From Podarcis pityusensis (Eukaryota): 64,000 bases of DNA. Positions within the stretch are counted from its first letter, which is position 1. The number at the start of each line of letters is the position of its first letter. The notes beneath the pieces were generated by a model. The model saw only the letters and a list, made by a program, of their open reading frames with translations. It had not been told where the DNA came from and ran no database searches. Positions 42,605 through 49,256 of this stretch are shown here, in pieces. Position numbers and translations under genes: made by a program. Where the stretch lies: assembly GCA_964106645.2 (NCBI GenBank), contig OZ067038.1; one strand, given 5' to 3'.

Positions 42605-43209
42605 TTTGGACTGGTTGGATACAGAGGAATAGTGGGAGGAACTAGATGGGGAACCCCCAAGGGAAGGAGGCCCAGAGCCAGGGGACTGGTGGTGGGAGAA
42701 CGATGAGCAGTCAGAGGGAGAAGATTGGGAAGAGAAGGTGCCGGAAGCTGAAGAAGTAACAGGGTTTAGTAAGCTGAGGAAGTCTGTGGCAGAGAGACGT
42801 CCAGAATCAGAGGCAGAAGCGGAGGCTGGAGAAGAGAGAGGCCAAGAGGCAGAGATGGGTCTGGCTGGTGAAGAGTCACAAGTGTCTCCTCCTGCTGCTG
42901 CAACAAGCTCCCCTCCCCACTGGTCTCCCAGAACCAGGAGAGGCATGAAGAGGGCAGGAGGAGAAGTTAGCTTCATGAAGACACAGTCTAAGATTGCTTG
43001 GGGAAAGCCCTAGGGAGGAGGGAATTAGGCAACTGTCAGGAGACAGGGACCTTCAGTCTCAGCAACTGCTTCATGGAGGCAAGACCTACTGGAGATGAGT
43101 TGCTGTGCTCCTTAGGCCTAACAGTCCTGTGCTGATCCTGTTTTCGCTAGGAAGGAGTTAACTCCAACTTGCTCAATGTGATTTACGGCTGGTTCCCTCC
43201 TGTCGGGCA
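42605..43209 (+). mobile_element. Degenerate solo LTR of a related Gypsy family with coding-like, purine-rich U3
   Basis: GA-rich acidic reading frame (ORF 42738..43013) ending in SP/R-rich motifs like the LTR-encoded tail of the intact element; ends in CA. Boundaries approximate. Confidence 0.55.
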
Positions 43210-43686
43210 TTTGTGATAAGTTGAATTTTATGGAGCAGTTGATGTTGATGGAGTACAAGTCATACCTACACTCAGGATGGATACTTGAGACCAGTGTTCT
43301 GACACAATGTATGACACGTTGGGTATGGAATGGAGACAGTGTCCAAGGCCATGCTGCTTGCTTTTAAGGGAACAGATGTGACTCTGGCTCCGTCCACTCA
43401 TTGCATGTGGGCCTTGGATGCTTGCCCATGAGGGAATGAGGTCCTTGGGTTGCAAAAAGTGTCATGGAATTCTACTCGATATGATTCAGAGCAGTACTCC
43501 GATGTATAGTTAGCAGAGTAAAAACTTAAACACGTTGCAGGATTCCCCCAAAATAGACCAGAGGCAATTGTATCTCATCCAGCAGAACTTTACTGCTCCT
43601 GAAGGCAAATGAGCATAATGGTCACAAATCCAATATGTTCAGGATTGGCACTGTCCATAGGAAATCCAGTTGCAGCAGACTTAACT

Positions 43687-44094
43687 TGTCAGGGAACTGC
43701 CATCGGAAGGAAGGGAAGTGAAAGGGCTCACACAGGTTGGGAGAGACTCAGCAGCTGAAGAGGGAACCAGTAGGGGGAGAGGAGCTGGGCTGAGGGAAAG
43801 GGAGCTGGAGGGATGGCTCAGAGACACTTCCAGCGAAAACAGTGGGGAGGTTTCAGGACCTCCTGTAGGGACACCCACTCCTCGCCGGAAACTGTCACGC
43901 AGAGAGTCCAGAAGACGTGTTTCCGTTAAGGAGCTTTTATGTTGGAAGCGATTCCGAAAGCAACCACTGTCGGAATCTGCCAGCGACTGACGGAGCCATG
44001 TTTAAGGGGCTCCGTTACAGACAGAGGTTTGCAAACTTGACCAAACTCTGAGGGACTAGGATTTTACACACAAGCAGCTCATCGTCCCATCACA
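43687..44094 (+). repeat. 5' LTR (408 bp)
   Basis: tgtcagggaac...cccatcaca; identical to 48770-49177. Confidence 0.96.
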
Positions 44095-44096
44095 GC

Positions 44097-44107
44097 ATTC
44101 CGACAGT
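44097..44107 (+). promoter_or_regulatory. Self-priming primer binding site ATTCCGACAGT
   Basis: Starts 2 nt after the 5' LTR, lacks the TGG of a tRNA PBS, and is the exact complement of LTR 43966-43976. Confidence 0.8.
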
Positions 44108-44139: not shown

Positions 44140-45153
44140 ATGAGCAACCCAGCCGGAACCGGAGAAGCAGGAGCTGGAGCGGGTCCAAGCCTGGAAGAAA
44201 GGTACCGGGTGTTGGAGGTCCAGCTAGCGCTGCAGACGGCGAGGCTTGAGGAGAGGAGGGCTCAGGATGCAGACAAAAAGGGGAAAGACACCCAGCTCGT
44301 CAGAAAGGTACCAGGATTGGTGCAGAAGTTTGGGGGGGAGCCCAAAGACTATCATGGCTTTCGGACAGAGATGCAATATGCCCTCAATCTGCAGTTTGAT
44401 GAATTCCCTGACGAGGAATCAAGAGTGGCTTTCGTGATTGGGCATCTTGAAAAGGGGGCGAGAGACTGGGTTAGACCCCTGATGGCAGCGAATAGTGACG
44501 TCCTAAAGGACACGATGAAGTTCTTTCGCGCCATGGATCTGATGTTTTCCAGCGATATTGAACAGGGAGTGGTCCGCAGACAGTTAATGGCTTGCAAACA
44601 GGGGAGCCGATCTGTCCGTGAGTACTGGACTGAATTCACCATGTTGATCCATAAATTGGGGTGGGATCTATCGGCGGAACCCATTCAAATGCTTTTTGAA
44701 GAAGGGCTTTCTTCGGCTGTGAAAGACGAACTTTCCCGGGCGCCCAGGGCGGAGTCTATGGACCAGCTGACCAAATCAGCGCTGACCATAGGAGCGCGCC
44801 AGGAGGCGAGAGCATTGGAGAGGCGGGAAGGGAAGGGGGAACGTTGGAAGGAGTTCCGCATTCCAGACATTCCAGAGCCAACTTTCCCGCCGGCAGAGCC
44901 GATGGAAATCGGAACAGCGCGCGCGCGCGCAGTTTCAAAGCCCAGTGAGGGGGGAAAGAAGGAGGGAAAAGGCGCCCGGAAATGCTATCTCTGCCAACAG
45001 CCAGGTCACTTTGCCAGAGTCTGCCCCCAGAGGAAGGAATGGCAAGGGATGGTAGGAGCTGTGGAGGGAAGAGAGGAAGAAATACCGAAGCAAGTAAAAG
45101 CCAACGCCTGGCTGCCACCGTCGGGGCACAGCAGTCAGGCCAAAGAGCAGTGA
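44140..45153 (+). CDS. gag: Gag (337 aa): N-terminal coiled coil, retrotransposon capsid (PEG10/RTL-like), CCHC zinc knuckle
   Basis: QGSRSVREYWTEF major-homology-like motif; CYLCQQPGHFARVC knuckle; intact ORF directly after the PBS. Confidence 0.93.
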   Translation: MSNPAGTGEAGAGAGPSLEERYRVLEVQLALQTARLEERRAQDADKKGKDTQLVRKVPGLVQKFGGEPKDYHGFRTEMQYALNLQFDEFPDEESRVAFVIGHLEKGARDWVRPLMAANSDVLKDTMKFFRAMDLMFSSDIEQGVVRRQLMACKQGSRSVREYWTEFTMLIHKLGWDLSAEPIQMLFEEGLSSAVKDELSRAPRAESMDQLTKSALTIGARQEARALERREGKGERWKEFRIPDIPEPTFPPAEPMEIGTARARAVSKPSEGGKKEGKGARKCYLCQQPGHFARVCPQRKEWQGMVGAVEGREEEIPKQVKANAWLPPSGHSSQAKEQ

Positions 45154-48100
45154 AAGTGCCCACGCCAGAACCTCCCAAACCCGCCCTAGTGATAGAAGTG
45201 GCGCTAGAGCTGCCAAACGGACACCCTCTAAAGATAAAGGCGCTGTTGGACTCAGGCAGCTCCTGCAATTTCATGAGCAAAGAGTTTGCAGCTGAACACC
45301 AGATACAGACGATCCCTTTAAGCAACCCCCTGCAGGTGACCACGATCGATGGCAGGGAGCTGTTGGGAGGAGAAGTCAGCTTGCAGACCGTCCCAATGAT
45401 AATGAAGGTGGCAAGGCACACCGAACTGATAGCGTTTAATGTGGCCACCTTGGGAGGAGCTCCCATTATATTGGGGATGAGCTGGCTAGCGTTACATGAT
45501 CCGCTGGTGGGCTGGCATCAGAGAGTGGTTTCTTTTGGTTCAGCACATTGCTTAGAACACTGCAAAGAGGGAAAGGGTTTGGCAGGGGCCCAAGCCACCC
45601 TAGCAGGGACTGAAGTAACGGAGAACGTGAAGGTACCACGACAATACGCAGATCTCCGCGACGTCTTCAGCGAAAGGGAAGCTGACCAATTACCCCCGCA
45701 TAGACCCTTTGACTGTCAAATCAATTTACTCCCTGGGGCACAGCTCCCTGTAGGCAAGCTGTACGCCATGTCAGACAGAGAGATGCAGGAGCTAAGAGAG
45801 TTCATTGACAAGAACCTGAAGAGAGGGTTCATCAGAGAGTCCAGGGCGGTGGGGGGCAGCCCAGTGTTTTTTGTGGATAAAAAAAACACGAACAAGCCGA
45901 GGCTTGTGTGTGACTTCAGGGCCTTAAATGCAGTGTCAGAACCAGTGGCTTTCCCTATGCCCAGGATTGACGACATTTTGACAAGGGTCAGGAAGGGAAA
46001 GATTTTTACTAAACTGGACCTAAGGGGGGCGTACAACCTGATACGAATAAGGAAGGGGGATGAATGGAAAACCACCATGTTCACCCCTTTGGGGGCATTT
46101 GAATATTTAGTTATGCCCTTCGGCCTACAAGGAGGCTCCGCGTGCTTTCAATCGTTTATGAACCACGTCCTGGGGCCTTTGCTTTACAAGAATTGTGTGG
46201 CCTTCTTAGACGACGTGTTGGTGTATTCTGAGAATGAGGAGCAGCATGTGAGAGACGTCAGAGAAGTGTTGAGCAGGCTGCAAGCCAACCAGCTGTGGGT
46301 GAAACTGGAGAAGTGTCAGTTTCATACCAAGGAGGTGGAATTCCTGGGGTATCGCCTGTCAGACAAGGGATTGGCCATGGATCCCGGCAAGGTCCAGGCG
46401 GTGCTGGAATGGAAAACACCCAAAACAAGGAAGGATGTGCAGAGGTTCCTAGGATTTGGGAACTTCTATCGTAAGTTCATCCGAAACTTTGCCCACCTGA
46501 CGGCGCCCATTACGGACTGTCTCAGCAGTAAGAAGAAGTTCGTTTGGACTGAGGAGGCGGAGCGAGCATTTGAGGAACTAAAAAGGGCCTTCGCCTCGGA
46601 ACAACAACTCCTGCATGTGGATTTACAAAAACCGATGAGAGTGGAAACTGACGCATCAGACAGAGCGATTGGGGCGGTGCTTCTGCAGCCAGGGAAGGAG
46701 GAGTCAGAGTGGAGACCGTGTGCCTTTTTTTCGCGAAAGCTGAACAAATCCGAGAGGAACTACACGGTGTATGACCGAGAACTACTAGCCATTCATGAGG
46801 CGTTCCGGAGATGGAGGCACCTGCTAATTGGCGCACAACATAAGGTGCAAGTGTGCACTGACCACAAGAACCTAGAGTATTGGAGGACGGCACGAGTGCT
46901 CAACCAACGGCAAGTGAGATGGGCCCAGGAGTTCTCCAAATTTAACTTTGAGATTTGTTACGTGCCAGGCCCAGAGAACATTAGGGCGGACGCTCTCTCA
47001 CGCAAACCTGAATATTTGGAGGAGGAGGGAGCACCCGAAGAGAGACATGTCATTCCAGAGGACCGCTGGGTGTGTGGGGCGGCATTGGTGGGACAAAGAG
47101 AACTGGTAGAGGAAACAGAGAATGATGAATACGCCCAGAATAAGCTCAGAGGTCTTAGGGGTGAGGGAGAGGAACCAGGGGGTTTCGAGGAAAGAAATGG
47201 AGCTTTGTATTACAAAGGGGCACTGTATATCCCTGAAGGAGACTTAAGGGGGAGGGTACTCAAGCAGTTGCACGACAGCCCCACGGCGGGGCATTTTGGA
47301 CAACACAAAACCATGTGGTTGGTCACCAGGGAATTTTGGTGGCCTAAGGTGAGGGAAGATGTACGGGAGTATGTAAGAGGGTGTGAGCAATGCCAGCGAG
47401 CCAAAGGGGAGAGGCGGGCACCGGCGGGGCTATTAGAACCCTTACCAACCCCAGAACGACCTTGGGAGGCAGTGTCGATAGATTTTATGACTGATCTGCC
47501 GAAGTCCAAGGGGAAAACAGCCATCATGGTGGTGGTAGACCTACTAACAAAGATGTGCCACTTTGTAGCCTGCTCGCATGCAGTCACGGCGGAAGAGACA
47601 GCGAAGTTATTTGTAGAACACATTTTTAGGTTGCACGGAGTGCCATTGAGGGTGGTCTCAGACCGAGGAAAACAATTTACGTCCAGGTTCTGGAGGAAGC
47701 TCATGAGCTTACTGCAGGTGGAGGTCAACTTTTCGACTGCCCGGCACCCTGAAACCAACGGGCAGGCGGAAAGAGCAAACGGGGTCCTCCAGCAATACCT
47801 GAGGTGTTATGTCAATGACAGAGAGAATGACTGGGTAGAAAAGTTGGCGCTGGCGGAATTTGCCTACAACAATGCCGAGAATGTGTCCACAGGGATGAGC
47901 CCCTTCTTGGCTAATTATGGGTGTCATCCCAGGGCTTTCCCAGGGGGAGAAGGGGAGAGATGGGGTGTCCCGGCAGCCGAGCATTTTGTAGAAGAAATGG
48001 AAGCAATCCATCGTCAGCTCCAACTCAACTTAGAAAGGGCGAAGGAAGAATACAAGAGGCAGGCAGACAAGAACCGAAGGGAAGGTGAAACCATAAGGGT

Positions 48101-49073
48101 GGGAGATAGGGTGTGGCTGTCAACCCAAGGGTTGCCGTTCAAAGGAGGTTGTAAGAAATTAAGACCCAGGAGATTGGGTCCCTTTGAGGTCATTCAACAG
48201 GTCAACCCAGTGGCTTTCAGGCTCCGGTTACCCAACCACATGAAACTGCACCCAGTATTTCACAGGTCGTTACTGTCACCGTATGAGGGGGGACGAGAAG
48301 GGATGGCCACTCGGGGACCGGTCATAGAAGAAAGGGAATGCAGCAGCCATGTGGCAGAAATCCTCGACGCCAGATGGAAGGGGGATCAGGTGGAGTATTT
48401 GGTAGCGTGGGAAGGAGAACCGGAGTCAGAAAACACTTGGGTAATGGCAGAAGATATCAATGACGAGGTATTGATAGAAACGTTCCATCAAAGGTTCCCA
48501 AGGAAACCTCAGCCTGTGGAGAGGTTCCGGAGGGAATACTTTGGGACCACCGATGAGGAGGAGGAGTTGGAAGGATTCTCGGAATCGGAAGGGGAAGGGG
48601 AGATGGACTCTGAGGAGGAGGAGTACTTCGAGACCAGGAACCGCAACAGGTGGAGAGAAGTGTTCGGGACATCGGAAGATGAAGGAAGTTCATTCCGGGG
48701 TTTTGCCTCCTCACCGCCCGTAGAGGAGGGGGCGAGAGGGGATGAAGGGGGCCCTGGAGGGGAGGTGGATGTCAGGGAACTGCCATCGGAAGGAAGGGAA
48801 GTGAAAGGGCTCACACAGGTTGGGAGAGACTCAGCAGCTGAAGAGGGAACCAGTAGGGGGAGAGGAGCTGGGCTGAGGGAAAGGGAGCTGGAGGGATGGC
48901 TCAGAGACACTTCCAGCGAAAACAGTGGGGAGGTTTCAGGACCTCCTGTAGGGACACCCACTCCTCGCCGGAAACTGTCACGCAGAGAGTCCAGAAGACG
49001 TGTTTCCGTTAAGGAGCTTTTATGTTGGAAGCGATTCCGAAAGCAACCACTGTCGGAATCTGCCAGCGACTGA
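44982..49073 (+). CDS. pol: Pol in the -1 frame relative to gag (probably expressed as Gag-Pol): protease, RT, RNase H, integrase, chromodomain, extended acidic/basic tail
   Basis: LLDSGS (PR), FLDD (RT), ETDASD (RH), H-H-C-C plus SIDF/VSDRG/NGQAER (IN), GPF motif and chromodomain; uninterrupted 1363-codon ORF. Confidence 0.95.
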   Translation: MLSLPTARSLCQSLPPEEGMARDGRSCGGKRGRNTEASKSQRLAATVGAQQSGQRAVKVPTPEPPKPALVIEVALELPNGHPLKIKALLDSGSSCNFMSKEFAAEHQIQTIPLSNPLQVTTIDGRELLGGEVSLQTVPMIMKVARHTELIAFNVATLGGAPIILGMSWLALHDPLVGWHQRVVSFGSAHCLEHCKEGKGLAGAQATLAGTEVTENVKVPRQYADLRDVFSEREADQLPPHRPFDCQINLLPGAQLPVGKLYAMSDREMQELREFIDKNLKRGFIRESRAVGGSPVFFVDKKNTNKPRLVCDFRALNAVSEPVAFPMPRIDDILTRVRKGKIFTKLDLRGAYNLIRIRKGDEWKTTMFTPLGAFEYLVMPFGLQGGSACFQSFMNHVLGPLLYKNCVAFLDDVLVYSENEEQHVRDVREVLSRLQANQLWVKLEKCQFHTKEVEFLGYRLSDKGLAMDPGKVQAVLEWKTPKTRKDVQRFLGFGNFYRKFIRNFAHLTAPITDCLSSKKKFVWTEEAERAFEELKRAFASEQQLLHVDLQKPMRVETDASDRAIGAVLLQPGKEESEWRPCAFFSRKLNKSERNYTVYDRELLAIHEAFRRWRHLLIGAQHKVQVCTDHKNLEYWRTARVLNQRQVRWAQEFSKFNFEICYVPGPENIRADALSRKPEYLEEEGAPEERHVIPEDRWVCGAALVGQRELVEETENDEYAQNKLRGLRGEGEEPGGFEERNGALYYKGALYIPEGDLRGRVLKQLHDSPTAGHFGQHKTMWLVTREFWWPKVREDVREYVRGCEQCQRAKGERRAPAGLLEPLPTPERPWEAVSIDFMTDLPKSKGKTAIMVVVDLLTKMCHFVACSHAVTAEETAKLFVEHIFRLHGVPLRVVSDRGKQFTSRFWRKLMSLLQVEVNFSTARHPETNGQAERANGVLQQYLRCYVNDRENDWVEKLALAEFAYNNAENVSTGMSPFLANYGCHPRAFPGGEGERWGVPAAEHFVEEMEAIHRQLQLNLERAKEEYKRQADKNRREGETIRVGDRVWLSTQGLPFKGGCKKLRPRRLGPFEVIQQVNPVAFRLRLPNHMKLHPVFHRSLLSPYEGGREGMATRGPVIEERECSSHVAEILDARWKGDQVEYLVAWEGEPESENTWVMAEDINDEVLIETFHQRFPRKPQPVERFRREYFGTTDEEEELEGFSESEGEGEMDSEEEEYFETRNRNRWREVFGTSEDEGSSFRGFASSPPVEEGARGDEGGPGGEVDVRELPSEGREVKGLTQVGRDSAAEEGTSRGRGAGLRERELEGWLRDTSSENSGEVSGPPVGTPTPRRKLSRRESRRRVSVKELLCWKRFRKQPLSESASD

Positions 49074-49177
49074 CGGAGCCATGTTTAAGGGGCTCCGTTA
49101 CAGACAGAGGTTTGCAAACTTGACCAAACTCTGAGGGACTAGGATTTTACACACAAGCAGCTCATCGTCCCATCACA
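48770..49177 (+). repeat. 3' LTR (408 bp); first 304 nt are part of the pol ORF
   Basis: Direct repeat of the 5' LTR, preceded by the purine tract GGAGGGGAGGTGGA. Confidence 0.96.
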
Positions 49178-49256
49178 TAACTTAAACTTACAGTTACTTA
49201 TAATAAAATGAAACAAAACCTTAACACTAAGCATACTATTTGCAGAACACCACACC

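Follow-up and report, generated by a model that had tools for sequence, protein, structure and literature searches.

Continuation of the pol reading frame through the polypurine tract and U3 of the 3′ LTR in a young lizard chromovirus

Chromoviruses of the Tf1/Sushi group carry a self-primer which, according to 10.1101/2022.12.06.519325, marks the 5′ end of the element RNA, and the LTR logo given for Sushi in PMC3601003 contains a clear AATAAA. In plants, the ORFs of CRM group A are described as extending into the 3′ LTR (PMC3059260), and several ORFs of the beet element Bingo are reported to run into it as well (PMC3605345); given these precedents, an overlap of this kind is a known design and not unique. 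Outside Butler et al. 2001, Repbase and GyDB, our literature search found no paper describing it for vertebrate chromoviruses. In the lizard element discussed here the overlap is real, selected and clade-wide, and represents a vertebrate variant of the known design.

The window (the whole 64,000-nt stretch of DNA analysed) contains a complete LTR retrotransposon, a chromovirus of what we call family A, bounded by two identical LTRs of 408 nt. Gag is followed by PR-RT-RH-IN between TG...CA LTRs with a target-site duplication, in agreement with the Tf1/Sushi criterion. The features of the element are:

43682 to 43686 and 49178 to 49182, strand not applicable: left and right copies of the 5-bp target-site duplication TAACT
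43687 to 44094, + strand: 5′ LTR, 408 nt, TG...CA ends, identical to the 3′ LTR
43966 to 43976, + strand: self-primer 11-mer, the presumed RNA 5′ end and start of R, complementary to the primer-binding site and paired with it in the predicted fold
44097 to 44107, + strand: self-primer-binding site (PBS), recognized by complementarity and fold
44140 to 45153, + strand: gag, with Retrotrans_gag, Ty3 capsid and CCHC knuckle (ORF and domain search)
44964 to 44970, + strand: candidate −1 slippery site GGGAAAA in the gag/pol overlap, proposed from the frames
44949 to 49073, + strand: pol frame with PR, RT, RNase H, IN, SH3, chromodomain and a 192-codon tail
48351 to 48494 (aa 1135–1182), + strand: chromodomain without the first and third positions of the aromatic cage (PF00385 above cut-off)
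48522 to 48578, + strand: TIM-like motif 1, a predicted helix, an acidic linker and LEGF (FxGF in sister families)
48651 to 48704, + strand: TIM-like motif 2, WxxxF, a 9-residue acidic S/T linker and FRGF
48756 to 48769, + strand: polypurine tract (PPT), read in frame as GGEVD
48770 to 49177, + strand: 3′ LTR, its initial 304 nt coding; U3 placed at 48770 to 49048
48966 to 49001, + strand: arginine-rich cluster in U3, a candidate NLS or nucleosome anchor on sequence grounds
49011 to 49043, + strand: predicted helix bearing the conserved LCW motif
49049 to 49059, + strand: 3′ copy of the self-primer, translated in the pol frame
49071 to 49100, + strand: TGA stop (49071–49073) with a 10-bp hairpin directly behind it, near the place of the AATAAA of sister families

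The limits of U3 follow from the self-primer, since it marks the 5′ end of the RNA. Self-primer and PBS covary, with two compensatory changes in family B. Family A comprises hundreds of near-identical copies: all 40 DNA matches scored among 1271 candidates are 100% identical, and on contigs C1–C2 alone the SH3 and chromodomain are 100% identical in 150 of 150 scored matches (at least 150 copies). The family is very young, the product of a recent burst. Its closest named relatives are Gypsy proteins of Podarcis muralis, with about 90% identity over Pol, and the best matches of the element are to lizard, snake, frog and fish elements.

From stop to stop, the pol frame measures 1374 aa. Beyond the chromodomain, where the initial annotation had seen about 195 codons without a stop, we count 192 (a tail of roughly 190 residues); the frame passes the PPT and then the 3′ LTR for 304 nt, or the whole presumed U3 plus 25 nt of R, and ends at a TGA 12 nt beyond the self-primer copy, at the coordinates given in that annotation. 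The openness of the LTR is weak evidence in itself because 132 of 3000 dinucleotide shuffles (4.4%) also leave its 100 codons without a stop; five of 3000 do so for the entire 192-codon tail. It is the selection test that carries the case.

In a comparison of the window's element with copy L061, the LTR-coded part has a pN/pS of 0.28 in the pol frame (19 synonymous and 16 replacement differences; p=3e-4), and five further family A/B pairs give 0.35–0.51 (p 9e-5 to 0.02). These values come from nucleotide alignments of real copies of different subfamilies, with no correction for multiple hits and with pairs that are not independent; a transition weight of 3 moves them to 0.33–0.62. The other reading frames of the same part range from 0.57 to 6, except for the mirrored antisense frame, which is a weaker shadow, and the 100 nt past the stop carry no selection signal. 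Judged by these substitutions, purifying selection acts on the LTR-coded tail in no frame but that of pol. An antisense ORF (48509–49084) was rejected, being interrupted by stops in the family-B pairs; we take it as a shadow of the coding frame. The constraint is uneven. Tail pN/pS lies far above that of the integrase core (0.05); most of the constraint falls on the final 55 codons, and there is weak constraint over the 5′ half of U3 (0.43, and at least 1 among close variants, where changes are few).

Differences in length point the same way as the substitutions. The U3-coded part measures 100, 102 or 109 codons across subfamilies, so that length changes in U3 are triplet-sized (in one divergent pair a net difference of 27 nt was split by the aligner into non-triplet pieces), the tail of P0003 contains an in-frame insertion of 15 aa, and gaps of non-triplet size occur behind the stop in five of six pairs. 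Most of the copies checked read through the PPT rather than stopping before it. The same 1374-aa frame was counted by eye in about 104 of 150 copies retrieved by SH3 and chromodomain alone. Of 30 older family-B copies selected by integrase DNA, 18 keep the frame open as far as the LTR stop (16 flagged by script, plus L186 and L198, also full length at 245 aa); no common lesion lies in U3, and the lesions are private to single copies save for one G-run slip found in two. Open tails that had been retrieved by tail similarity (59 of 60) were left out of this frame test.

Read-through is not limited to these families. Sister families with 64–75% identity over SH3 and chromodomain retain it (LTRs were resolved in five of ten sister-family stretches, L231 and L232 being duplicates), and every other chromovirus family resolved in the genome also reads into its 3′ LTR. 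The description of the arrangement as atypical for Gypsy elements was therefore overstated, CRM group A, Bingo and these families doing likewise. A distant young family, C (L126–L165; 40% identity), was retrieved without the tail as query: 26 of 30 copies read through, 117 codons into U3, and in the other four the G-run at the PPT has slipped. Its stop sits just before a GATAAA, about 30 nt ahead of the self-primer, some of its subfamilies have a single 1623-aa frame, and selection is weak (pN/pS 0.48–0.62, p 0.04–0.3). In the young copies L163 and L164, which have identical LTRs, G-run slips at the PPT cut the tail, and the 1163-aa frame length of L163 is common to six matches; the tail may thus not be needed in cis. 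Broken-pol variants recur in family A too, so that the family-C truncations may be accounted for by help in trans or by errors in homopolymers; the recurrence of a 1084-aa broken-frame variant, seen several times on C1–C2, suggests spread in trans.

At the protein level, amphisbaenian and viper proteins have similar tails, acidic and then basic. Among 150 relatives, 14, the named ones from Labeo rohita, show a PPT-like GGG.V with a shared SPx[YF] end about 10–25 residues further on (P0013, P0020, P0029-31, P0034, P0038-39, P0082, P0085, P0098, P0114 and P0116-17; a fifteenth protein with this ending, P0087, was subtracted as an unrelated fusion). These sequences suggest short LTR-coded tails in fish elements, and the pol/LTR overlap is apparently common in vertebrate chromoviruses. 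A search of the lizard genome with the P0005 tail gave no match. The 38-Mb contig C19 is strongly over-represented among matches of the older chromovirus families, as would be expected of a repeat-accumulating sex chromosome.

The middle of the tail is unalignable among the 12 tails compared, and what is kept is motif 1, motif 2, the junction of PPT and LTR, and a basic cluster with LCW behind it. The initial annotation had passed over the most conserved of these, namely LCW and the pair of FxGF motifs that precede the PPT. Motif 1 consists of F, an acidic linker and FxGF (LxGF in family A) and is missing in P0005; the FxGF of motif 2 is retained in 11 of the 12 tails. LCW or ACW is likewise present in 11, L230 being the exception, its codons varying synonymously at a spacing of 20–28 nt from the self-primer. 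Basic residues are conserved by composition and not by sequence, the exact basic sequence being limited to families A and B. The CDK-like TP sites and the basic stretch that had been pointed out in the LTR part are both present in the window, but the TP sites (TPTP) are confined to families A and B and absent from more distant sister families. Overall, the charge of the tail is acidic, then basic.

The TIM anatomy described in PMC9987994 and PMC7220354 comprises a helix, an acidic linker of 8–16 residues phosphorylated by CK2, and an FxGF needed for binding to LEDGF/HRP2, often in tandem. Motif 2, with its 9-residue, acidic, S/T-rich linker followed by FRGF, agrees with the linker criterion. 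Of 20000 shuffled tails, 59 contain a strict TIM-like pattern; the 147 other chromovirus-containing proteins contain it nowhere. The chromodomain of all ten TIM-bearing sequences lacks the third cage aromatic, and nine of the ten lack the first; no TIM-like motif occurs in 110 sequences that retain the third, though the pairing of motif and cage loss falls within one clade and so counts as one event. Family C, with its cage intact, carries instead of FxGF motifs an RRSARL near the end of its U3-coded tail, an exact match to the acidic-patch anchor that PMC12487698 describes for HMGN/Dsup; in the window's tail the RRSARL core is absent and only the arginine-rich cluster is found. A low-confidence single-sequence model predicts a folded chromodomain, a disordered tail, and helices ahead of motif 1 and across LCW, with none seen before motif 2. 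The motif 2 profile retrieved no known TIM from the PDB, PDB searches with pieces of the tail returned nothing relevant, and the ESM Atlas search gave no usable match. Exons for the IBD of both LEDGF and HRP2 are present in the lizard genome.

Upstream of the element, the window also contains an old solo-LTR-like repeat (42607–43204) with TGTCA-type ends, about 80% identity to its best relatives and 5047 first-look candidates. A frame within it (42633–43013) codes for a stretch of like character, acidic and rich in SP and arginine, and other copies have RRSLRL-like motifs. An internal part for this repeat was looked for and not found.

If the tail is to be made in full, the poly(A) site must lie past 49073. 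The LTR contains no AATAAA, ATTAAA or TATA, as had been noted for AATAAA and canonical TATA, and the AATAAA of the Sushi model near the LTR's 3′ terminus is absent in families A and C. It is kept in the sister elements L231, L235 and L239, and none is visible in the family-B LTR ends examined. The AATAAA earlier located in the flanking DNA (49202–49207) is indeed there and may be used by the window's own copy; as a signal of the family it was rejected, such a hexamer lying within 100 nt in 4 of 47 copies in sense and 6 of 47 in antisense, which is chance level. A candidate TATA substitute, TTTTAT at about −30, is not kept in L231, L233 and L236, and family C has GATAAA there. Contigs of four presumed-RNA runs cover the region and are uninformative on transcript ends. 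In family B, a lineage without AATAAA, the hairpin behind the stop is kept with different stem letters; it may serve 3′-end formation or self-priming. Of the three roles the initial annotation gave to one sequence, coding and primer are backed by frame-specific selection and by the covariation of primer and PBS; that of promoter would follow from general LTR biology.

On balance, we think the selected tail is likely a mostly disordered integrase extension for targeting or nuclear entry, which would bring the integration complex to the chromatin of the host. The tail would stay on the mature integrase. Its FxGF motifs, once phosphorylated in the manner of CK2 sites, would bind a domain of the TFIIS N-terminal type, for instance that of LEDGF/p75 or HRP2, and this binding would take over from methyl-lysine reading by the chromodomain. 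The basic cluster and helix coded in U3 may bind importin or the nucleosome surface. The element can afford the overlap since its RNA contains U3 at the 3′ end and nowhere else; the same DNA would be read as protein there and act as promoter in the 5′ LTR. By analogy with CRM and with the MLV-BET tail, and given the position behind the chromodomain, nuclear entry and chromatin tethering seem the most likely role; we infer the LEDGF/HRP2 step from the anatomy of the motifs and the presence of both genes. More tentatively, and at somewhat less than even odds, the squamate clade may have switched tethers, losing the cage and gaining tandem mimics of TND-interacting motifs for LEDGF/HRP2 or a related elongation-factor domain, while the U3-coded basic motifs grip the nucleosome.

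A simpler tail, only NLS and spacer, with the basic cluster importing the integrase and the acidic FxGF region serving as a linker that balances charge and has no specific host partner, would suit the predicted disorder, the conservation of basic residues by composition alone, and the C-terminal NLSs of Ty1 integrase (listed among the references of PMC3605345); we consider it rather unlikely, as FxGF and LCW spacing and aromatics are held where the surrounding tail is unalignable, which exceeds the needs of a linker. Less probable still is a function inside the particle, or on nucleic acid of the element itself (as chaperone, in protease regulation or in Gag-Pol packaging), or release as a small protein in the manner of retroviral accessory ORFs overlapping U3. 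The acidic-then-basic charge pattern would fit such a role, as would the predicted frameshift site, which lies upstream of the Gag zinc knuckle and would thus leave Gag-Pol without one; yet the position behind the chromodomain matches the targeting domains of other chromoviruses, and the motifs resemble ligands of host chromatin factors. That the frame is a by-product of a T-poor, purine-rich U3 which seldom forms stops, with promoter, PPT and primer signals accounting for the conserved letters, is very improbable and largely refuted by the selection test: the shuffles that stay open, the LCW codons about 30 nt ahead of the presumed start site and the tail-truncated family-C copies speak for it, but the synonymous excess is seen in the pol frame only, length changes are triplet-sized, and LCW varies synonymously, at variable spacing, in several families.

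If the tail is a targeting extension, it bears on the larger question of how vertebrate LTR retrotransposons choose their insertion sites; the tails supply short, testable peptide motifs in recent, near-identical families, and one genome offers a natural contrast between a lost cage with FxGF motifs and an intact cage with RRSARL. The GC content of the 3′ flank is 0.405 in 47 family-A copies (from L001–L030 and L067–L090) versus 0.465 in 28 family-C copies (from L126–L155; Mann-Whitney p=1e-4), which reflects a difference either in target preference or in retention. Mimicry of LEDGF/TND ligands, if true, would be an independent route to the tether used by HIV, and if tethers were switched, targeting tails encoded in the LTR would be a modular trait general to vertebrate chromoviruses. 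It follows, too, that there are thousands of solo LTRs with coding-type constraint, a matter of importance for LTR dating and annotation. From their sequence, the candidate host-mimicking motifs appear to be the part most worth following.

Among described systems, the window's element shares with the Tf1/Sushi group (sushi-ichi and Amn-san of the GyDB V-clade) the domain order, the chromodomain, the self-primer/PBS duplex and pol in the −1 frame, as far as these are set out in 10.1101/2022.12.06.519325 and PMC6317226; it differs by its 192-codon tail over U3 and part of R, its degenerate cage and its lack of AATAAA. With CRM group A and Bingo it has in common an ORF that runs into the 3′ LTR. 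In CRM the CR motif replaces the chromodomain, the primer is tRNA-Met and the location is centromeric, whereas the window's element has retained a chromodomain, located upstream of the PPT, uses a self-primer and is scattered along C1–C2. Its tail resembles the TIM/IBM of IWS1, KMT2A/MLL1 and JPO2, as presented in PMC9987994, in the apparent combination of helix, acidic S/T linker and FxGF in tandem. A further likeness, by analogy, is to the MLV-BET system outlined in PMC5053271, where the flexible tail of integrase holds a short motif that serves as the host tether. HIV integrase binds LEDGF through folded domains; the window's element would use a candidate linear motif. The likeness to HMGN/Dsup is exact in the U3-coded tail of family C, and in the window's family it is limited to an arginine-rich cluster. 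The nef and sag ORFs of HIV and MMTV overlap U3 as separate spliced genes; U3 is coding in those viruses as it is here, but in the window's element it is read as the continuation of pol.
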